From contig NC_014833.1 of the NCBI RefSeq assembly GCF_000179635.2, positions 3,150,001 to 3,182,000 on the forward strand: a stretch of DNA of 32,000 nt, in the 5' to 3' direction. Shown in pieces: positions 4,529 through 26,369 of this stretch. Under the pieces are notes generated by a model. That model ran no database searches, was not told where the DNA came from, and saw only the letters and a program-made list of their open reading frames with translations. Every line of letters begins with the position of its first letter. Positions within the stretch are counted from its first letter, which is position 1. The position numbers were made by a program, and so were the translations under genes. Source of the stretch: Ruminococcus albus 7 = DSM 20455. GTDB lineage: Bacteria > Bacillota > Clostridia > Oscillospirales > Ruminococcaceae.

Positions 4529-5317
4529 TTATTCGTCGTTTTCCCCTTCATCAGAGGGTTTTCTGGAATAGCTGTAACCGTAGCCATAGCCGTAGCCGTA
4601 TCTATAGCCATACCTGTACCTATAGCCGTACTTTCCGCCGTATTTTCCGCTCATAACAGAAACATTGTTAACAACTACACCAAGCAGCGAACCATCCGCC
4701 ATCTTTATCGCTTCGATAGCCTCCTGAAGAGCATCGTAAGTTGACTGCGCGAACTTTGCAATAAGCAGTACGCCTGCTATCGAATCCAGAAGTGTAAGAC
4801 AGTCGGTAACGATATTTATAGGGGGGGTATCAATGATGATGTAATCATAGTGAGCAGAAAGCTGATCCAACAGCTGCTTCATATTATCCGAACCCAGCAT
4901 TTCTGAAGGGTTGGGAGGGATAGGACCGCAGGTAACTATATCGAGATTGTCGATAACATTGTGGTGTACTATCTCCTTAAAGGTGTTGGTACCGCTTATC
5001 AGCGTAGAAAGTCCAAGATCATTCGTCAGTGAGAATACTCTGTGCTGAACAGGCTTTCTCAAGTCACCGTCGATCAACAGTACATGGTTATTGTTCTGTG
5101 CGAGAGTTATGGCGATATTTGCAGCTACTGTGGATTTACCCTCAGAAGCCAGTGCACTGGATATAGCAAATATCTTATTCTTTTTGGTAGAAAGAGCAAA
5201 GGAGATATTGGTTCTAAGGTTCTTGTATGCCTCAGTAACAGGGAAAGCCACATTCTTATCCATAAGTGTTCTTCTTCTGTTCCTGTTACCGCCAGGGATC
5301 TTCTTAGTATTTGCCAT
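4529..5317 (-). CDS. CpsD/CapB-family bacterial tyrosine kinase (BY-kinase) with a long C-terminal Tyr cluster
   Basis: Walker A (SALASEGKST), Walker A' (LLIDGDLRKP) and Walker B (YIIIDTPP) are present. The C-terminal tail is YGGKYGYRYRYGYRYGYGYGYGYSYS. Confidence 0.9.
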   Translation of the reverse strand: MANTKKIPGGNRNRRRTLMDKNVAFPVTEAYKNLRTNISFALSTKKNKIFAISSALASEGKSTVAANIAITLAQNNNHVLLIDGDLRKPVQHRVFSLTNDLGLSTLISGTNTFKEIVHHNVIDNLDIVTCGPIPPNPSEMLGSDNMKQLLDQLSAHYDYIIIDTPPINIVTDCLTLLDSIAGVLLIAKFAQSTYDALQEAIEAIKMADGSLLGVVVNNVSVMSGKYGGKYGYRYRYGYRYGYGYGYGYSYSRKPSDEGENDE

Positions 5318-6104
5318 ACTTGCCGTTTCCTCCCCTCTCGTCCATGAAAATGTCGGGTATCTCTGCGAGGACAGGTACGCCGAAACGTTCCTTTATATCC
5401 TCACCGCTCTTAACTGTATTATCAAAGAAGCTGGTGATCAGCGCGAAACCTACAGACACTGCAAGACCTGCGATAAGACCGAGCATCAGATATTTTGATA
5501 TATTGGGTCCGCTGGGTGTTGTCGGCACCTTAGGAGGTGATACCGTTTCAACCGAACCTGCCTTGGTGGTACGTGTGATGACTTCCTGAGCAAGCTCTGA
5601 GATATAGGAACATATATCTGCCGAGAACTTAGGCACCTGGCTGGTAACTGTTACCTGAAGCACCTCAGTATTATTTACTGCAGATATATTTATAAGCCTT
5701 TTGATCTGTCCGTAGGGTATATACTCATTGCCCTTTTCATCGACAGATATGGTGAAGTAGTTCTTGAGATCGTCTACATCATAATCTTTAAGCAGCTTAT
5801 CTGAGATAGACTCATACAGCAGCGGATCGTCAAGTATTACGATATATGTTGTCGCAAGGCTTCTCGCAGTATTAAGATCCTGAGCGTTTATAAGATTATC
5901 ATCATTATCCTGATCACCGGTCTTACCGTTTGTTACGTATATCTTAATGCTGGCAGTATACTGGAGAGGCAGTACGAACTTTGCATAGCTGTATCCCACG
6001 ATACCTGCAAGTATCGTAACAACGATTATCATTCTGATATGGCTGAGCAGTATGCCCAGTATTTCCTGTATACTTATCTCTTTTCCTTCCATTATTTGCA
6101 ACAC
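5304..6104 (-). CDS. Wzz/CpsC-type chain-length determinant and tyrosine-kinase modulator
   Basis: 266 aa with an N-terminal TM helix, an extracytoplasmic domain and a C-terminal TM helix. It overlaps the kinase gene by 14 nt, the classic CpsC-CpsD arrangement of Firmicutes. Confidence 0.85.
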   Translation of the reverse strand: MLQIMEGKEISIQEILGILLSHIRMIIVVTILAGIVGYSYAKFVLPLQYTASIKIYVTNGKTGDQDNDDNLINAQDLNTARSLATTYIVILDDPLLYESISDKLLKDYDVDDLKNYFTISVDEKGNEYIPYGQIKRLINISAVNNTEVLQVTVTSQVPKFSADICSYISELAQEVITRTTKAGSVETVSPPKVPTTPSGPNISKYLMLGLIAGLAVSVGFALITSFFDNTVKSGEDIKERFGVPVLAEIPDIFMDERGGNGKYGKY

Positions 6105-6304: not shown

Positions 6305-7066
6305 TCAATAGCCGAGCAGTTCTCTCATTACCCAGCCAAAAGTTCCGTTATAGCTGGTATATACCCATACGTTGCCGTCAGGGCCTACAGTTTCTCCTAT
6401 ACCGAGCACCGAATATCCGTCGGGTATAGTAGTCTTTATGTCATAATCCTTGGACGGTCCGTATCTCAGGTTCAAATAAGTAGTATCTGAGGTAACGGTA
6501 TATTTTCTGCCTGAATCATATCTCATATCAGGCTTCATCTCAAACATCTTATCCGGCGCAAAAGATGTGGTTGTGACCGCAGAAGATCTCCTTGTGGCAC
6601 GTGCCGAAGGATCTTCTATGGCTATCGTTCCGTTCGCGGTGGTGGTAGTCTTTTCAGCACTCACGGTCACAGCAGGTGCAGTAGTGCCGTTATGTTCCGG
6701 CAGTGAATAGTAGGTCTTCGCCACGGTCCGCTGTGTTGCGCGGATATCTTCGTCCACATCATCACTGAACAGCTGATCATTCTCCAGCGTACCTGTCACG
6801 GTAGTGGTGGTAGTATAATTACCGTCTGCATCGCCGTCATCAGCATCAATATCACCAACAGCAAAGGTAGCAGTCTTGGTAGTATGCACCGAACGCTTTG
6901 TGTAGGATACGCCCGAAGTGAATATAGGCTCAGTTTCAGAAGAATCGCCCTTGCCCACCTGACCGCAGCTGCCAAGAGCAGCCATTGTCAACACTGCAAT
7001 AATTACTTTCCAGAAATTTTTACACATACTGATCTTTCCTTTCAAGCCGGTCGTCTGCTTTCTCAT
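6305..7066 (-). CDS. Lipoprotein with a Thr-rich linker and a C-terminal bacterial SH3 domain
   Basis: The signal peptide carries the lipobox LGSCG. The C-terminus YLNLRYGPSKDYDIKTTIPDGYSVLGIGE...WVYTSYNGTFGWV matches the SH3_3 pattern. The start overlaps the upstream stop by 4 nt (ATGA). Confidence 0.7.
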   Translation of the reverse strand: MRKQTTGLKGKISMCKNFWKVIIAVLTMAALGSCGQVGKGDSSETEPIFTSGVSYTKRSVHTTKTATFAVGDIDADDGDADGNYTTTTTVTGTLENDQLFSDDVDEDIRATQRTVAKTYYSLPEHNGTTAPAVTVSAEKTTTTANGTIAIEDPSARATRRSSAVTTTSFAPDKMFEMKPDMRYDSGRKYTVTSDTTYLNLRYGPSKDYDIKTTIPDGYSVLGIGETVGPDGNVWVYTSYNGTFGWVMRELLGY

Positions 7067-11256: not shown

Positions 11257-12264
11257 TTACTTTTCAAGTACAACTGTACCGTCCTCAGCATACTCGATTA
11301 TGCCGTCGGAATCTGCATCAACAAGTTCTTCCTTCTCATAGGAAGCTCCTCCGGGGATAGCGCCCTCAGGGAGTGCGATAACGTTACCGTTCTCGTCCTC
11401 AAATACGATGTCAGCGATGTACATATCGATATCGCTCTTTGTTACCCAGCTCATAACTGTAGTAAAGTTGGTTTCGTTAGCGTGGTTGAACTTAGCATTT
11501 TCTTTAATACCTATCCTTGCATTAACTACGCTGTGAGCCCACTGGTTGCACCAGCCGTCACCTGCATCGGAAGCCATTTCGATAGTAGCCATATTGCCGT
11601 TCCATTCGCCTGCATTGTTAGTACCCATAGCGCCGCCGAACCAGCCTACGGTAACAGGGCCAAGGCCATCATCATATATAGCCTGCTCACGTGCGATAGT
11701 AACTATCTCCATCTTGATATTGAAGATATCATCCATCAGCTCGGGCTGTGCTGCAAACAGCTTGTTCATATCGAACTTGACCTTCAGTACCTTATGACCG
11801 TTGTTCTGAGTATCCTCGGTATCATAGATCTCCTCGTCGCACTTCAGCATAGGCACGCCTGCAACTTCCTGTATTGAGAAGTTTATCTTAGCCTCATCAC
11901 CTGTATAATCAGCATCGCCGGGCTTAGCTTCTTCCGAATCCTCATAGAAAGCGGATACTATGCCCTTGATATCGCTGTCTGCTGCAAATTTAACAGATGC
12001 ATTATCATAGCACTCGAGAGAATCTGCGATAGCGGAAAGAGGCTTCCAGTTGGAATTATCAACTTCGCTGCCCTTATCCTCCTCAGCAGTAGTTTCATCC
12101 TCTGTGGTCTCATCTGCAGTAGTGTCCTCAGGTGCTGTAGTTTCAGCAGCGGTGGTAGTTGTGGTCGCAGCCTTTGACTCAGTATTATCTTCCGTTTTTC
12201 CGCACGAAGTGAATACCATTGCAGTAATTGTAAGAGCTGCGGTCATCGCAAGTATCTTTTTCAT
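11257..12264 (-). CDS. Secreted lipoprotein of unknown function with a Thr/Glu-rich linker
   Basis: I placed the start at MKKILAMTAALTITAMVFTSCGK (lipobox) because GGAGGA lies 8 nt upstream; the listed start at 12279 is 5 codons further up. The C-terminal ~250 aa form a beta-rich globular domain with no motif I can name. Confidence 0.7.
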   Translation of the reverse strand: MKKILAMTAALTITAMVFTSCGKTEDNTESKAATTTTTAAETTAPEDTTADETTEDETTAEEDKGSEVDNSNWKPLSAIADSLECYDNASVKFAADSDIKGIVSAFYEDSEEAKPGDADYTGDEAKINFSIQEVAGVPMLKCDEEIYDTEDTQNNGHKVLKVKFDMNKLFAAQPELMDDIFNIKMEIVTIAREQAIYDDGLGPVTVGWFGGAMGTNNAGEWNGNMATIEMASDAGDGWCNQWAHSVVNARIGIKENAKFNHANETNFTTVMSWVTKSDIDMYIADIVFEDENGNVIALPEGAIPGGASYEKEELVDADSDGIIEYAEDGTVVLEK

Positions 12265-12325
12265 TTTTATATCCTCCATACATATTATTTATATGGGACA
12301 AAAGCCCCGATTTATTTACTATTGT

Positions 12326-14007: not shown

Positions 14008-14091
14008 GCCGCTGTGGCGAAATTGGCAGACGCAGCAGACTCAAAATCTGCCGGTAGCAATACCGTACCGGTTCAAGTCCGGTCAGCGGCA
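14008..14091 (+). tRNA. tRNA-Leu (anticodon CAA)
   Basis: It folds by hand into a cloverleaf. The acceptor stem is GCCGCTG/CAGCGGC with discriminator A. The anticodon stem GCAGA/TCTGC carries the loop CTCAAAA. It has a long variable arm and a T arm ACCGG-TTCAAGT-CCGGT. No CCA is encoded. Confidence 0.93.
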
Positions 14092-16111: not shown

Positions 16112-18868
16112 TCAGATATCCTCAACGCACAGACCTGTGCCCTCGGCGGGTCTTATCTTTTTGAATACTATCTTATCCATATCAAGTCCGCCCAGACCGA
16201 AGTGAAGCCTGAATATAGTATACCGGGAGAACATGGGCATTTCTTCCACGGCGAAGGTCACGGGTTTTCCGCCTGTGCCGTTCCATGTGAATGTGCCCCA
16301 TGCAGTACCCATGCTGAATACGGTCACGGGCATCTGTGCAAGCTCGCTCTGTGTGGAGCTTGCTGTCATTTCCATGCGGTACTGACCGAACTGTGCCACA
16401 TCTACAGTGAAGCTGTAATCGAGATTTCTCTCGGTCTTAACACCACTCATATCTATGGTCAGGTCGCCGTCCAGCAGGAACACTCTGTCGCCCTCGCCGT
16501 CATCAACGGTCTCGGCAGGCTTGTTGATAACTTCAACAGCCTCGTCCTCGCCAAGCTTTCTTGCCATAGCATGAGTGCTCATCATAAATGAGAGTATGTT
16601 CCTTGCAGACCTCTGAAGTTCTGCGCGGGTAAGTCTGCCGTCTGCCAGTGCCGCTATAACATTGTCACTGCCGCTTTCACCGTCTGCGCATACCATATAA
16701 ACATCATTCTGCGCACGTACCATAGCCGCAAAATTGTTCTTGTCAGGAGCACAGCCGCGGTCATTGATATTTGCCCACCAGTCAGTCATGGTAAAGCCGT
16801 CAAAGCCCCACTGCTTGCGGAGTATCATAGTATTAAGGTCAAAGCTGCCTGCTGTCCAGAGACCGTTTACCTTACCGTAGGTCGTCATAACAGAACGTGC
16901 CTTGCTCTTTCGTACAGCTATCTCGAATCCTTTGAGGTATATCTCACGGAGCGCTCTCTCACTTGCTACGGAGTCGATGAAATGTCTGTTGGTCTCCTGA
17001 TTGTTGGCGCAGAAATGTTTTATAGTACCCTCAACGCCCACGCTGTGCAGACCTTCAAGTTCTGCCGCAGCCATTGTACCCGTCAGGAAGGGGTCTTCAG
17101 AAAAGTACTCGAAATTTCTGCCGTTGAGGGGGTGGCGGTGGATATTCATACCGGGTCCCAGCAGACAATCCACTTTATTTGCCCGCATCTCCAATCCGAG
17201 ATATGTGAAAAGCTCGGTGATAAGAGACTTGTTGAATGTTGCCGCGATGAGTGTACCGTTAGGCAGGCTGAATGCCTTTGTACCTACATCAAGACGCATT
17301 CCCGAAGGACCGTCCGAACAGCACCCTGCAGGTATGCCAAGTTCTTCCAGGTGCTTAGCCACACCTCCGAATGCCGCAGCCGTACCGGGAGTGACCTTTG
17401 GAGAACACATACCCTCGCCGCGCACAAGGCAGTTAAGGTCATTGTCATCAAGCTGTGCTATGAACTCATCAAGGGTGTTCTTACCATGGGCCACATCGGA
17501 AAGGGCTATACCCTTATCACCTGTATATGCTGTTTCCGCAGGCAGATATCCAAGTCTGCGTGCAGCTTCGTCAACCTTTGAAAGAGGGGTATCCTCATAG
17601 GAAAGACCCTCTGCGGTGCGAACCATCCTCTTGAAAGGCGTAACAGGTGCCAGTGCCTGTTCAAGCTGTTCGATGACCTTGGTAGAATCCAGTGTGAAAG
17701 CAAAGCATTCCTTTGCACTGCGCACATCACTGCCTGCATAGAATGTGTACTCTCCTGCTTCCTCTACCCATGCGAAGGCATTTCCTGTAATGCCGCTGTC
17801 ATCGTAGGAAGCTATATCACGCTCGGTGACTTCTATCGTCAGCGTCTGTTCTTCATTCGGTGCAAGTACCTTTGTCTTTTCAAATCCGCAAAGCACACGC
17901 GCAGCCTTGCCAAGCTTACAGTTGGGCGCTTCAAGGTATACCTGCACGACTTCCTTGCCTGCCGCACTGCCGATATTCTTCACTTTAGCAGTTATGACAA
18001 CACCGTCATCAGTCTTTCTGCCCTCGGCACTTATCTCAAACTGCGTATAGCTAAGTCCGTATCCGAAGGGGAATCTTACCCTGTCCTTTGCAAAGGTATC
18101 AAAGTATCTGTATCCCACGAAGATATCTTCAGCATAGATATCCACATCCCTGTTGTGGAAATTTTTGTCAGAGGGATAGTCTGTGATATCATAAGCGATA
18201 GTATCGGGCAGCTTGCCGCAGGGAGATACCTCACCCAGCAGCACCCTTGCAGTGCCTGTACCGCCTGTCATACCACCCTGCCATACATACATTACAGCAT
18301 CGGGTGAGAATTCGTCGATAAAGCCCATGTCGATTATATTGCCCACATTGAGCAGTATCACCATTTTGCTGAAATTATCCCTTACCTTGCGCAGCATAGC
18401 CTTTTCACCGTCTGTCAGCAGATAAGAACCTGCCTTGCAGCTGTTGTCCTGTTCCTCGCCTGCGGTGCGTCCTATAATACATATCGCTGTATCGGAACTC
18501 TCAGCCGCCCTTTTTACAAGGCTGTCATCAAGAGGCATCTCCTCCTGACACCAGGGCTCGCCGCCCCAGCCCTCGCCGTAATCGTAGGGATGTTCAGCAA
18601 CATAGTCCTTGTAAGCCTTCAGCACATCCTCATTGAGTTTTGCACCTGCTTCTATAAGGCCATCGGTTATTCCCGTGACCTTTGCAACATTCACCATTCC
18701 GCCAGAGCCCGTACCGCTTTTATAATAATCCAGCTGTATACGTCCGAAAACTGCCGTAACGGCATTTTTATCCAGCGGCAGGACGCCGTTGTTCACAAGC
18801 AGCACTGCGCCCTCAGCGTTTACCTCTGCTGCCTTTTCGAGATATTCGTTCCAATCAAGCTTTATCAT
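16112..18868 (-). CDS. Glycoside hydrolase family 3 beta-glucosidase/xylosidase-like enzyme with permuted domain order
   Basis: 918 aa. The GH3 C-terminal-type alpha/beta domain comes first (AVLLVNNGVLPL), then the Fn3-like domain (FGYGLSYTQFEI ... VVQVYL). The catalytic TIM-barrel domain follows (KHFCANNQETNR, GFDGFTMTDWW), then an extra ~150-aa beta-rich tail. Confidence 0.9.
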   Translation of the reverse strand: MIKLDWNEYLEKAAEVNAEGAVLLVNNGVLPLDKNAVTAVFGRIQLDYYKSGTGSGGMVNVAKVTGITDGLIEAGAKLNEDVLKAYKDYVAEHPYDYGEGWGGEPWCQEEMPLDDSLVKRAAESSDTAICIIGRTAGEEQDNSCKAGSYLLTDGEKAMLRKVRDNFSKMVILLNVGNIIDMGFIDEFSPDAVMYVWQGGMTGGTGTARVLLGEVSPCGKLPDTIAYDITDYPSDKNFHNRDVDIYAEDIFVGYRYFDTFAKDRVRFPFGYGLSYTQFEISAEGRKTDDGVVITAKVKNIGSAAGKEVVQVYLEAPNCKLGKAARVLCGFEKTKVLAPNEEQTLTIEVTERDIASYDDSGITGNAFAWVEEAGEYTFYAGSDVRSAKECFAFTLDSTKVIEQLEQALAPVTPFKRMVRTAEGLSYEDTPLSKVDEAARRLGYLPAETAYTGDKGIALSDVAHGKNTLDEFIAQLDDNDLNCLVRGEGMCSPKVTPGTAAAFGGVAKHLEELGIPAGCCSDGPSGMRLDVGTKAFSLPNGTLIAATFNKSLITELFTYLGLEMRANKVDCLLGPGMNIHRHPLNGRNFEYFSEDPFLTGTMAAAELEGLHSVGVEGTIKHFCANNQETNRHFIDSVASERALREIYLKGFEIAVRKSKARSVMTTYGKVNGLWTAGSFDLNTMILRKQWGFDGFTMTDWWANINDRGCAPDKNNFAAMVRAQNDVYMVCADGESGSDNVIAALADGRLTRAELQRSARNILSFMMSTHAMARKLGEDEAVEVINKPAETVDDGEGDRVFLLDGDLTIDMSGVKTERNLDYSFTVDVAQFGQYRMEMTASSTQSELAQMPVTVFSMGTAWGTFTWNGTGGKPVTFAVEEMPMFSRYTIFRLHFGLGGLDMDKIVFKKIRPAEGTGLCVEDI

Positions 18869-24002: not shown

Positions 24003-24036
24003 AAAAAATGCGCCCACGTTTACGCAGACGCATTTT
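24003..24036 (-). terminator. Candidate terminator after the PASTA protein gene
   Basis: The stem aaaatgcg / cgcatttt (24005-24012 with 24029-24036) continues into a U run on the minus-strand transcript. Confidence 0.5.
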
Positions 24037-24075: not shown

Positions 24076-25677
24076 CTATTTTTGTGGAGTAATTGCCAGA
24101 AGTCCGTCCTTATCAAGACGTCCTACAAGCTCAGCAGTCTTATTAACGAAATTTACATTGAACACTGCGTAATCCACCGACTTTCCTGTGTCTTCACTTG
24201 TGATTTTAACTAAAAGAGTTTCGATCTTTTTACCGTAGATATCCAGCGTGATCGAGCCGCCTGCGACAGATGCACCATTAGCTATATGCTGGTAAGATAT
24301 AGGGTTACCTTCTTTGAATACATCAACATTATAAGAACCACGCAGGCCTTCGGGCACAGGCAGGCTTATCGTCAGTTCAGAACTAGCGTCGACACTTTTG
24401 GATATGCCGATATTATCATCTTCGCCGTTATTGTTTGAATTCGATGTTTCGCTCTTCGGAGAATTGATTGCGAGCAATCCTTCCGTATCCAGACGGCCTG
24501 CAAGTTCAGCTGTCTTTTTATCATAATTTACATTGAACACTGCGTAATCCACCGACTTGCCTGTTTCATCACTTCTGATCTTCACAGTAAGTGTTTCGGT
24601 CTTTTTACCGGAGATATCCAGATCGATCGTACGGCCTGCATAAGCCTCGCCCTTTAAAATAGCCTTTTGATATACAACATTACCGTCTTTGTATACATCA
24701 ACAGCATACGAACCGTTCAGACCCTCGGGCATAGGCAGACTTACCGTCAGATCAACAGGATCGGACTCACCGGTGGATACATAGATAGTGACTTCGCTGT
24801 CCCTATCAACTCTTCTGTCGCCCTCGATCGACTGATCGATAACCTTGCCCTTGTCACCGTCATGGGGCATTTCCAAAACCTTAACTTTCAGGTCGTTATA
24901 CTCGAGGATATTTGTAGCTCTCTCCTTGGTCAGACCGACAACATCCGGTACCTTTACCTGAGTATCAAGAGGACCCTTGCTGATGTAAAGTGTAACCATA
25001 TCATCGGCTGCAAATTCAGTACCTGCCGCCGGCTCGGTACCTATCGCCTGACCTTCCGAAACTTTATCGTCATACTTGGATCTGAGCATGACAGCAAATC
25101 CTGCAGCTTTAAGCTCACTTTCCGCCGCATCAGACTCATAGCCTGAAACATCAGGCACCTTGACTTTTGTCTTGCCGGCACTGATAAGAAGTTCGACTTC
25201 GTCTTCAGTACCTTCAATCAGTTCGGCACCTATTGCCTTACCCTCAGGCACTGTGAGATCATACTGTGTTCTGAGAGTTACAGTGTAGCCTGCCTCTCTC
25301 AGCACACTCTCTGCATCCGCCGCATCCATACCTGCTACATCCGGTATCGAAGCATAGCTGCCCAGCGGACTTGTACCGTCCTCGGCAGCCGACAAACTGC
25401 TTCCCGGATCTACTCTGTCATATCCGTCTTTGAGTAAATAAACTCCTCCGCCTACCGCAAGTACGCCTGCAATAGCTGCAGCAGCTATCCTGCCGCGTCT
25501 TCTTACCTTTGCCGTACCTGTTACTTTATTATTATCCGTATTGCTGATACTTATTGTTTTGTTCTCCATAATAATATCACCTGCTAAGCCTTTCCGAATG
25601 CGAGCCTTGACAGCGCTGTCTGCACGCACATTATCGAAAGCGGCTGTAAGCTTATTATCAAGATCCTTGTCTGTCAT
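24076..25677 (-). CDS. Putative membrane anti-sigma factor with three extracellular PASTA domains and two duplicated C-terminal beta-rich domains
   Basis: I placed the start at MTDKDLD (ATG 25677), preceded by the RBS GGGAGGGTGAG and 4 nt after the sigma-factor stop. There is one TM helix (IAAAAIAGVLAVGGGVYLL). The three PASTA repeats begin IPDVAGMD, VPDVSGYE and VPDVVGLT. Two ~100-aa repeat domains, 125 aa apart, follow. Confidence 0.75.
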   Translation of the reverse strand: MTDKDLDNKLTAAFDNVRADSAVKARIRKGLAGDIIMENKTISISNTDNNKVTGTAKVRRRGRIAAAAIAGVLAVGGGVYLLKDGYDRVDPGSSLSAAEDGTSPLGSYASIPDVAGMDAADAESVLREAGYTVTLRTQYDLTVPEGKAIGAELIEGTEDEVELLISAGKTKVKVPDVSGYESDAAESELKAAGFAVMLRSKYDDKVSEGQAIGTEPAAGTEFAADDMVTLYISKGPLDTQVKVPDVVGLTKERATNILEYNDLKVKVLEMPHDGDKGKVIDQSIEGDRRVDRDSEVTIYVSTGESDPVDLTVSLPMPEGLNGSYAVDVYKDGNVVYQKAILKGEAYAGRTIDLDISGKKTETLTVKIRSDETGKSVDYAVFNVNYDKKTAELAGRLDTEGLLAINSPKSETSNSNNNGEDDNIGISKSVDASSELTISLPVPEGLRGSYNVDVFKEGNPISYQHIANGASVAGGSITLDIYGKKIETLLVKITSEDTGKSVDYAVFNVNFVNKTAELVGRLDKDGLLAITPQK

Positions 25678-25681
25678 AGTC

Positions 25682-26158
25682 TCACCCTCCCAACTCTTTT
25701 TTAAGCTTTTTTCTTGCACGGTGTATATAGGAATATACTGTATTCTCACGGCATCTCATCAGCTTAGCGGTCTCTGCGGCGGTATAGCCCTCGTAGAGAT
25801 TCAGGTAAACTGCCATTCTTTCATTCTCGGGCAGACGCATCACCGCGTCTATAACCTCCCTGTACTGAAAAGCCACACCCTTATCTGCCGCGGCATCAAG
25901 CTCTACATCTTTCCTGTGATGCCGCCTCAGCATATTCTTGCAGACATTCTGTGCCGTAACTATCAGCCACGCCTTGGTATGCTCTCCCATTTCGGGAACT
26001 TCGTTCGCTTCAAGGTAATGCATGAATACCGTCTGAGCTGCATCTTCCGCATCGGCAGAATGACCGTGGAAATACACGTAGCAGATCCTGTACACCATAT
26101 CAAAATATTCATCATAAACGGCAGCAAAGCCGCTCAGCACGAAACAAGCTGTTTCCAT
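25682..26158 (-). CDS. ECF-type sigma-70 family RNA polymerase sigma factor
   Basis: About 158 aa. Region 2 is DMVYRICYVYFHGHSADAEDAAQTVFMHYL. Region 4 is an HTH (LPENERMAVYLNLYEGYTAAETAKLMRCRENTVYSYIHRARKKL). I prefer ATG 26158 over the listed TTG at 26164. Confidence 0.85.
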   Translation of the reverse strand: METACFVLSGFAAVYDEYFDMVYRICYVYFHGHSADAEDAAQTVFMHYLEANEVPEMGEHTKAWLIVTAQNVCKNMLRRHHRKDVELDAAADKGVAFQYREVIDAVMRLPENERMAVYLNLYEGYTAAETAKLMRCRENTVYSYIHRARKKLKKELGG

Positions 26159-26369
26159 AGTCAAACCACCCCCTTACTGTCCGCCGCCAAGGGGGAAGGC
26201 AGCGGTCGTTTTTGGTTTTCTGTATATAATACGTTTGAGAACTGCATTTCCTTGCAGCAAAAAAATATTTTTTTGAAAAAATTATTTCGATGTGCCAAAA
26301 CAAAGCTTTTACCGCATTTTATACCGATATTTTTATTCTGCAACAGACGATATTTTATGACATAACATA

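Follow-up and report, generated by a model that had tools for sequence, protein, structure and literature searches.

An ECF sigma factor gene coupled to a gene for a candidate anti-sigma factor with a PrkC-type PASTA ectodomain in Ruminococcus albus 7

Here, we describe a gene pair of Ruminococcus albus 7 = DSM 20455 that encodes an extracytoplasmic function (ECF) sigma factor and, directly behind it, a membrane protein of 533 amino acids (aa) with three PASTA repeats, which we read as a candidate anti-sigma factor. The pair lies in a 32,000-nucleotide (nt) stretch of the genome (NC_014833.1, 3,150,001-3,182,000), which we call the window and within which all coordinates below are counted. Both genes are on the minus strand, the sigma gene at 25682-26158 and the gene of the 533-aa protein at 24076-25677, as are all features of the operon described in the following. 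To our knowledge, PASTA domains are textbook features of just two classes of proteins, class B penicillin-binding proteins and PrkC/PknB/Stk kinases. The original prediction, made from the letters of the window alone, had described the second gene product as a PrkC-like ectodomain on an anti-sigma scaffold, and we followed it up with profile searches, structural models, gene-neighbourhood comparisons and the literature.

A tightly coupled sigma and PASTA gene pair

The two genes are separated by 4 nt, as first read from the sequence: the TGA stop codon of the sigma gene is followed by GACT and then by the ATG of the 533-aa open reading frame (ORF), whose ribosome-binding site, GGGAGGG, lies inside the 3′ end of the sigma gene. 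Judging from this layout, the two genes are translationally coupled. On the 3′ side of the PASTA gene, a consensus scan found a terminator-like hairpin with a T-run (24009-24026), and beyond it lies a strong sigma-70-type promoter of tatD (23968-23940; TTTACA-17-TATAAT with TG). Because the hairpin is followed by this separate promoter, the sigma and PASTA genes appear to form a two-gene operon of their own. The 533-aa ORF is not an artefact, since the same protein was found at 97% identity on seven independent contigs with identical neighbours. Apart from this 97%-identical orthologue, its best relatives are Stk1/PrkC kinases of Ruminococcus, mostly from the R. albus group.

The sigma ORF opens with TTG (25682-26164), but the likelier start is the ATG at 26158, which sits behind a ribosome-binding site, AGGGGGTGG (26166-26174), that is conserved in all loci of the family to which the window pair belongs (family A, defined below). 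The resulting protein of 158 aa is an ECF (group 4) sigma factor that has regions sigma-2 and sigma-4 only and falls within the roughly 150-200 aa of ECF factors: Pfam Sigma70_r2 matches residues 17-84 (E = 4.6e-11), Sigma70_r4_2 matches residues 102-154 (E = 2.5e-15), and the general model TIGR02937 (sigma70-ECF) reaches 69.1 bits (cut-off 42.9). As none of the NCBIfam equivalogs passed its own cut-off, the protein is ECF-type without assignment to a named group. Its nearest relatives in the PDB are the ECF sigma factors 6DXO and SigW (5WUQ), and it is 75-92% identical to the sigma factors of eight other Ruminococcus family-A loci. The acidic DAED motif of region 2.2, the absence of which marks kinase-activated ECF43-type sigma factors (PMC8999054), is intact (...HSADAEDAAQ...). 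By these features, the protein is a canonical ECF sigma factor.

A PrkC-type ectodomain without a kinase

The architecture of the 533-aa protein is the one that had been laid out in the original prediction: a cytoplasmic N-terminus of about 60 aa (residues 1-61), one transmembrane helix (residues 62-82), three PASTA repeats that start with (I/V)PDV, and two beta domains of about 100 aa with a period of 125 aa. Pfam PASTA (PF03793) detects the three repeats with an E value of 8e-36 and a score of 122.3 bits against a cut-off of 23.2, far above the profile threshold on which the idea had been staked beforehand. Repeat 1 (residues 110-171, 25165-25350) starts with SIPDVAG, repeat 2 (residues 172-238, 24964-25164; best Pfam PASTA stretch 172-234) with KVPDVSG and repeat 3 (residues 241-305, 24763-24957) with KVPDVVG. 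Whereas repeats 2 and 3 are 73% and 75% identical to PASTA-2 and PASTA-3 of a Ruminococcus PrkC (P0005), repeat 1 is 50-52% identical to PASTA-2 of its own protein and of PrkC and only 22% identical to PASTA-1 of the kinase. On this basis, it is a duplicate of the PASTA-2 type and not the membrane-proximal PASTA-1 of the kinase.

The PASTA array is followed by two immunoglobulin (Ig)-like beta-sandwich domains. The first (residues 306-408, 24454-24762) is a homologue of the C-terminal domain of PrkC, with 67% identity to that of P0005, confidently modelled beta strands and a weak, partial NPCBM match (26.7 bits), and the second (residues 430-533, 24079-24390; predicted local distance difference test (pLDDT) score >90) is its tandem duplicate. 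The two are 103-104 aa long each and 62% identical. Taken as one block, PASTA-2, PASTA-3 and the first beta domain are 72% identical to the kinase P0005 over 233 aa.

In an AlphaFold model built from 44 sequences, the ectodomain has a pLDDT of 80-95 (80-93 for the PASTA stretch, residues 110-305), and residues 1-108 are unstructured. Residues 110-305 are modelled with the fold of PASTA domains, in which an alpha helix packs against a beta sheet, and the three units follow one another linearly. The top PDB match of the ectodomain in Foldseek is 3PY9, the whole ectodomain of Staphylococcus aureus PrkC (three PASTA domains and an Ig-like domain; E = 2.6e-18, 293 columns), and further matches, which include PknB and PBP2x PASTA structures, are 5E12, 3M9G and 3OUV (TM-score 0.91, normalized to the length of 3OUV). 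The Pkinase domain of Hanks-type kinases finds no match in the 533-aa protein. Within NCBIfam, a scan of the whole protein returned only kinase and PBP2X PASTA models, and the Stk1/PrkC model NF033483 reaches 126 bits against a cut-off of 450, with only its C-terminal half (model positions 318-563) matched. The ectodomain is, by these similarities, of PrkC ancestry.

Compared with PrkC/Stk1/PknB kinases (NF033483; 3PY9), the window protein thus has a homologous PASTA-then-Ig ectodomain and the same membrane topology, but it differs in that it has no kinase domain, its 61-aa tail is unrelated to the kinase, its gene is coupled to a sigma gene, and a PASTA-2 duplicate stands in the place of PASTA-1, with a doubled Ig domain at the end.

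Two simpler accounts of the ectodomain were considered. A truncated or pseudogenized prkC is ruled out, as the N-terminus is conserved and unrelated to the kinase and the 533-aa ORF is intact on all seven contigs. A hypervariable or positively selected ectodomain is unsupported: divergence from strain L004 equals the background of 1.4%, with a ratio of non-synonymous to synonymous substitution rates (dN/dS) of 0.58 on 26 differences.

A short conserved tail and an Ala/Gly-rich transmembrane helix

The cytoplasmic part falls into two segments. Residues 1-34 (MTDKDLDNKLTAAFDNVRADSAVKARIRKGLAGD; 25576-25677) form an N-terminal module that is recognizable by alignment, with 24 of its 34 positions invariant among six aligned family-A members, and that we take as the candidate sigma-binding element. 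They are followed by a variable Ser/Thr/Asn-rich linker (residues 35-61, 25495-25575) that ends in KVRRR and is poorly conserved in family A, except for the basic cluster ahead of the membrane. The transmembrane helix itself (GRIAAAAIAGVLAVGGGVYLL; residues 62-82, 25432-25494) is the sole hydropathy peak of the protein and is highly conserved in family A, including an Ala run and a GGG. An Ala run and GGG in a transmembrane helix suit substrates of site-2 proteases, and the Ala-rich C-termini that are left act as degradation tags.

As KVRRRGR precedes the helix, the N-terminus is predicted to face the cytoplasm, which gives the protein the topology of membrane anti-sigma factors: N-in and single-pass, with the PASTA/Ig part as an extracytoplasmic ectodomain. 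Between close strains, the sigma gene, its promoter and the N-terminal module differ at 0-2 positions per 400 nt, compared to a background of 1.4%.

The tail is of no established anti-sigma type. Residues 1-61 do not fit the class I or zinc-binding anti-sigma (ZAS) description, that is, a helical bundle of roughly 70 aa (zf-HC2/RskA), often with an HxxxCxxC motif, and they contain neither Cys nor His, in keeping with the absence of this motif remarked on at the outset. RsgI_N (PF12791) does not apply either, as the N-terminus has no Pfam match (E ≤ 10) and the partner sigma factor fits ECF models. When the N-terminus was modelled on its own with AlphaFold2, its pLDDT of 44 was too low for a fold search.

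Conserved pairing with three sigma lineages

All eight kinase-less PASTA relatives whose gene position was looked up, in Ruminococcus-group assemblies and metagenomes, lie directly 3′ of a gene for an ECF sigma factor, from which they are separated by 4 nt or with which they overlap by 4 nt. Starting from the sigma side, a scan with one genome per species placed the sigma factor of family A (sigma A) in seven Ruminococcus genomes, and in 7/7 the family-A module begins 4-5 nt past the sigma stop codon. The genes that surround the pairs differ from locus to locus. Synteny with the sigma gene, which had been singled out beforehand as a point on which the prediction could fail, is therefore kept in both sets, in the downstream and conserved arrangement of anti-sigma genes. 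Two kinase-less PASTA proteins from other lineages, taken as controls (a Zn-ribbon-PASTA protein and a secreted PASTA protein), have no sigma neighbour.

The pairs fall into three families. Family A, to which the window belongs, has the N-terminus MTDKDLDNKLTAAFDNVRADSAVKARIRKGLAGD and sigma factors of 155-158 aa, and is found between araD and tatD, uvrA and tatD, or rnfD and PALP. Family B has an N-terminus with DFADFGKDAQIPDDARERILSSV and sigma factors of 174-177 aa, and lies between dxs and a hydrolase gene (L001-L003), with a more divergent member (P0082, locus L014) 3′ of an ABC-transporter/HATPase cluster. Family C starts with MSEIKDFYSN, has a sigma factor of 176 aa and is known from short contigs. 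The sigma factors of the three families are only 24-34% identical to each other, and all have partners with PrkC-type ectodomains. The tail-plus-transmembrane modules of families A and B match in a profile-profile comparison with a probability of 90.7% (E = 1e-6), a score to which the transmembrane helix contributes. Sigma A is closer, at 44% identity, to a sigma factor of Agathobaculum. The gene behind that one encodes a small single-pass protein of 252 aa that has a short tail at its N-terminus and lacks PASTA domains.

The case for an anti-sigma function of the 533-aa protein is contextual and has two parts: the strict order and tight coupling of the two genes, which hold in three sigma lineages and in many different neighbourhoods, and the N-in single-pass topology together with a tail and transmembrane helix that are conserved far better than the ectodomain.

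While comparing kinase-less PASTA proteins, we also noted a Zn-ribbon protein with a transmembrane segment and PASTA domains (P0103, L025-L027), with four PASTA-like repeats recognized by eye. It is very common in gut metagenomes (216 index blocks), has no sigma gene beside it and thus represents a further PASTA architecture.

A candidate autoregulatory promoter and a leader hairpin

Upstream of the sigma gene, at 26227-26256, lies a candidate autoregulated ECF promoter, TGCAAGG-N16-CGTATTA. Its TGCAAGG element is invariant and its (C)GTATTA element conserved 5′ of all family-A sigma genes examined (15 loci), where the same order of elements recurs: an A/T tract, TGCAAGG, a 16-nt spacer, (C)GTATTA, a conserved leader and a hairpin. 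The A/T-rich tract (AAAAAAATTTTTT-like; 26257-26286) lies just 5′ of the -35 element and is conserved in ten aligned family-A loci. The promoter motif has a single exact match in the window and, in 248 kilobases (kb) of related loci, only two one-mismatch sites besides those 5′ of sigma genes. A metagenome-wide scan gave, among the matches listed, mostly random sites plus related sigma operons of other Clostridia, and no targets.

On three metagenome contigs of such other gut Clostridia (L042, L121 and L147), TGCAAGG-N16-CGTATTA precedes operons of a small secreted protein and an ECF sigma factor. The secreted protein is rich in Cys, Asp and His and carries DANGDGICDN-like repeats, and the sigma factor has 160 aa and is 39-45% identical to that of the window. 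Going by these operons, the small secreted protein is a different type of partner of the same sigma clade. Because related sigma operons elsewhere have the same motif, it fits a clade-specific ECF promoter with autoregulation, and the operon of the window is probably self-contained and autoregulated.

The leader carries a hairpin in the 5′ untranslated region, CCGCTGCC-TTCCCCCTT-GGCGGCGG (26181-26205), with a C-rich loop that could pair with the GGGGG of the ribosome-binding site, to which it is complementary and which lies 6 nt further downstream. The hairpin recurs in all family-A leaders (also in L008, L011 and L015-L022), with stems that differ and a CCCC(C) loop that stays constant. RNAalifold gives a stem of nine base pairs, three of them with compensatory changes. 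The hairpin could control translation of the sigma gene. An Rfam scan of the window returned a tRNA only and no family for the hairpin.

An anti-sigma module with exchangeable ectodomains

When the family-A module, taken as the tail together with the transmembrane helix, served as the profile for an exhaustive search of 1.84 billion representatives, 32 clusters matched. Save for a few of the weakest, the matches begin at residue 1, and the proteins are roughly 500-1100 aa long, except for a few short fragments. PASTA domains are present in 8 of the 26 clusters that were scanned for them, and the architectures combine 0-3 PASTA and 0-3 Ig-like domains, usually behind a beta-propeller-like domain of about 400 aa. 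Because it is fixed at residue 1 while the ectodomains vary, the N-terminal module behaves like a modular anti-sigma scaffold, and the PASTA domain is, by the architectures compared, an optional and exchangeable part of this anti-sigma family. The two-part description of the protein in the original prediction holds up in this respect too, since the PrkC-like ectodomain is carried by a separate module that also occurs with non-PASTA ectodomains.

The beta-propeller-like domain deserves a mention of its own. It is present in one or two copies between the transmembrane helix and the PASTA domains in most family-A proteins, with YVTxDGKYLF motifs and a weak match to Lactonase, and was seen in P0090, P0002, P0007, P0064 and P0070 as well as, without PASTA, in L016 and L017.

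This variability bears on how the ectodomain would work. The number and order of PASTA domains are flexible, from none to three and with a PASTA-2 type replacing PASTA-1, which fits a generic role in binding or spacing better than a precise receptor, and duplicated Ig domains could act as spacers. The PASTA/Ig part might then be a tether that keeps the anti-sigma factor on undamaged peptidoglycan or where the wall is being built, so that damage or remodelling exposes the protein to site-1 proteolysis, much as lysozyme or beta-lactams trigger the cleavage of RsiV or RsiP. These two are precedents for site-1 cleavage triggered at the cell wall (PMC8092216, PMC8844934). The sequence does not separate such a tether from direct ligand sensing, as every step that we observe is common to both, and we regard the tether as unlikely, if worth keeping in view. 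Direct ligand sensing is the version that we carry forward.

The module and the ectodomain also follow different histories. Across nine loci, sigma identity correlates with that of the N-terminal module (r = 0.89) but not with that of the ectodomain (r = 0.36), and between the window and locus L011, identities fall from 92% for the sigma factor to 75% for the module and 54% for the ectodomain. In family B, recombination with a kinase gene can be traced directly. Residues 1-200 of P0010 are 98-100% identical to the family-B protein P0017, whereas residues 284-520 are 85-92% identical to the kinase P0011, and its Pro/Ser-rich tail past residue 524 is 73% identical to the same kinase. P0006 has the same mosaic pattern relative to P0004 and P0011. 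Overall, the N-terminal 200-240 aa of the two proteins are 95-100% family-B-like and their ectodomains 80-92% identical to P0011, and in a tree of core ectodomains P0007, P0006 and P0010 are nested within kinase clades. From their sequences, P0010 and P0006 are clearly recombinant mosaics of an anti-sigma factor and PrkC.

Ongoing gene conversion with prkC inside one genome was considered as well and is ruled out for R. albus 8, where the ectodomain is nearest to P0022 (71%) and not to the PrkC of the same strain, P0031.

These relationships allow a wider, tentative reading that we hold to be possible but would not bet on: one PrkC-type PASTA-Ig peptidoglycan sensor of Ruminococcus would serve a kinase and, alongside it, up to three unrelated ECF sigma/anti-sigma pairs. 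Recombination with prkC would renew the anti-sigma copies and thereby keep every output responsive to one and the same ligand. On this reading, PASTA sensing would have a transcriptional output that is independent of the kinase and previously undescribed, and the pairs would be a natural reporter system for what PASTA domains sense and how they signal across the membrane. Since the ectodomains match, assembly of the anti-sigma factors with PrkC itself is even conceivable.

A kinase-coupled switch takes this last thought further. Here, the PrkC-like ectodomain would co-localize or hetero-oligomerize with PrkC, which would phosphorylate the Ser/Thr-rich linker and thereby free the sigma factor, similar to the action of PknB on RseA and RshA in Mycobacterium tuberculosis but with recognition of the partner incorporated in the ectodomain. 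The ectodomain has been kept very close to PrkC (72% identity), the family-B mosaics extend into the Pro/Ser-rich tail of P0011, three anti-sigma ectodomains nest inside kinase clades, families A and B both have a Ser/Thr/Asn-rich cytoplasmic linker, and two anti-sigma factors, RseA and RshA, are documented to be phosphorylated in a PknB-dependent manner (PMC8999054; PMC10027907). Against this, conservation of the linker is poor, some members of the family have no PASTA domain, hetero-oligomerization of PASTA ectodomains is putative, and the R. albus 8 ectodomain, not being nearest to its own PrkC, gives no sign of continuous homogenization within the genome. We consider this switch improbable and retain the anti-sigma factor that acts without the kinase.

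A further possibility is that the 533-aa protein is no anti-sigma factor at all and is instead a sigma-dependent, co-transcribed surface protein with a role in peptidoglycan binding, adhesion or scaffolding, with the sigma factor controlled by other means. Such a protein would account for a cytoplasmic element that fits no known anti-sigma domain, for ectodomains that are large and variable in the family and contain the kinds of repeat, beta-propeller-like and Ig-like, that surface proteins typically have, and for the use of the same promoter by operons of a secreted protein and a sigma factor in related Clostridia. However, a gene that is only a target would hardly be expected to keep so tight a coupling and an order that never varies, and the same holds for a 34-aa element far better conserved than the ectodomain, for a conserved transmembrane helix, and for a sigma factor, promoter and N-terminal module that are nearly invariant between close strains; nor does the operon offer another candidate regulator. 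We judge it very doubtful that the protein is only a target of the sigma factor.

A proposed mechanism

Taking the evidence together, we consider it fairly likely that the two genes encode a sigma factor and its cognate anti-sigma factor, with the release of the former controlled by a PrkC-type peptidoglycan sensor, probably via regulated proteolysis. The anti-sigma factor would consist of two units: a lineage-specific scaffold that holds the sigma factor at the membrane, composed of the 34-aa element with its two predicted helices, the Ser/Thr-rich linker and the Ala/Gly-rich transmembrane helix, and an ectodomain derived from PrkC, the PASTA kinase of the cell itself, in the order PASTA-2′, PASTA-2, PASTA-3, Ig, Ig. 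In the resting state, we infer, the N-terminal element sequesters the sigma factor. The PASTA/Ig ectodomain would then engage, or lose, the ligands of PrkC-type sensors, that is, muropeptides, lipid II, nascent peptidoglycan or perhaps beta-lactams. The likeliest route of inactivation would be an extracellular cut, an intramembrane cut in the Ala/Gly-rich helix and degradation in the cytoplasm, along the lines reviewed for regulated proteolysis of anti-sigma factors and for the exposure of degrons after the site-2 cut (PMC10202637). The freed sigma factor would transcribe from TGCAAGG-N16-CGTATTA promoters, its own included.

Several observations weigh against this mechanism. On the cytoplasmic side, the conserved part comprises just about 34 aa and has no zinc motif, and its predicted helices (residues 3-15 and 21-31) are of low confidence (pLDDT about 55 for the helices and about 44-58 for the element as modelled). 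A known anti-sigma domain, which the original prediction had proposed to look for in the N-terminus, did not turn up: the N-termini of families A, B and C match no Pfam family at E ≤ 10, and a PDB profile search with them (E ≤ 10) gave chance-level matches only, with a best E value of 0.081 and no anti-sigma factor among them. The correlation between sigma factor and N-terminus could stem from linkage alone. On the sensor side, the orthologues of R. albus AR67 and KH2T6 (L016 and L017) have no PASTA domains, and the window protein is the sole version without the beta-propeller-like domain among the architectures compared. As PASTA is dispensable in the family, it is perhaps not its primary sensor. 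Lastly, the promoter motif led to no regulon member in the window or in the 248 kb of related loci.

Relation to known systems

The SigV-RsiV (lysozyme receptor) and SigP-RsiP/PbpP (beta-lactam) systems of Bacillus and its relatives share with the window the combination of an ECF sigma factor and a single-pass anti-sigma factor, and in RsiV the anti-sigma ectodomain itself is the receptor. Both answer insults directed at the cell wall via site-1/site-2 proteolysis (PMC8092216, PMC8844934, PMC10202637). Their ectodomains are unrelated to that of the window protein, for which proteolysis is an extrapolation, and whereas the penicillin-binding sensor of SigP, PbpP, is a separate protein, a sensor domain of the penicillin-binding protein/kinase type is fused into the candidate anti-sigma factor of the window.

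In Clostridium (Acetivibrio) thermocellum, the SigI-RsgI systems (and Sig24C-Rsi24C) have ectodomains whose sensor modules stem from other protein families, CBM, PA14 and GH among them (PMC6852018). Alike are the related clostridial lineage, the several paralogous sigma/anti-sigma pairs per genome and the borrowed modules of the ectodomain; different are the ECF type of the window sigma factor, the absence of an RsgI_N match and the borrowed module, which is a sensor of the peptidoglycan type and not a binder of plant polysaccharides. On these analogies, the 533-aa protein most likely works like the RsiV/RsiP or RsgI anti-sigma factors while being a member of none of those families.

A PASTA sensor also ends up controlling ECF sigma factors, by inactivation of the anti-sigma factor, in Mycobacterium tuberculosis, where PknB acts on RseA and RshA and so controls SigE and SigH (PMC8999054; PMC10027907). 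Whereas that route takes two proteins and a phosphorylation, the 533-aa protein, which has no kinase domain, unites PASTA sensor and presumed anti-sigma element in a single polypeptide. As for the element itself, its shortness has a counterpart among anti-sigma factors.

Class II anti-sigma domains, such as those of CnrY and NepR, are very short elements that contain no zinc, consist of about two helices and wrap around sigma-2 and sigma-4. The tail of the window protein is like them in size only, with no detectable sequence similarity and with helices of low confidence.

A full-text literature search that combined PASTA with anti-sigma or ECF did not turn up a PASTA anti-sigma factor that had been described or characterized, and the text of the ECF re-classification paper (Casas-Pastor 2021) does not mention PASTA. 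In public annotation, proteins of the family appear as 'PASTA domain-containing protein'.

Other features of the window

Besides the operon, the window encodes, at 16112-18868 on the minus strand, a 918-aa GH3 glycosidase with a permuted domain order, in which the GH3 C-terminal and Fn3-like domains come first and the GH3 N-terminal domain second. A Wzz chain-length determinant and a P-loop (AAA_31/ParA-like) protein are encoded at 4529-6104 and 6305-7066, both on the minus strand, and adjoin an SH3_3-domain protein. Pfam matches of the Wzz/P-loop pair are limited to Wzz and AAA_31/ParA/CbiA, and, in our reading, it resembles polysaccharide co-polymerases of the tyrosine-kinase type. The three genes suggest a small capsule or exopolysaccharide cluster. 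A 340-aa ORF at 11257-12279 on the minus strand has no Pfam match at E ≤ 1e-5, and one tRNA gene (14008-14091, plus strand) is the sole Rfam match of the window.

Significance

The ligands of PASTA domains and the way in which these domains signal across the membrane are still debated. If our interpretation is true, a PASTA sensor would gain a simple transcriptional output, with one sigma factor and one well-defined promoter (TGCAAGG-N16-CGTATTA), and ligand screens as well as studies of structure and function could use a reporter in place of phosphoproteomics. For ECF biology, a cell-wall sensor would join the input domains of anti-sigma factors, along with a very short and unclassified candidate for a sigma-binding element. 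From an evolutionary perspective, two signalling systems of one cell would share a sensor domain, with anti-sigma/kinase recombinants in which this can be demonstrated. The hosts of these systems play a major part in fibre degradation in the rumen and gut, two habitats in which stresses that target the cell wall are common.

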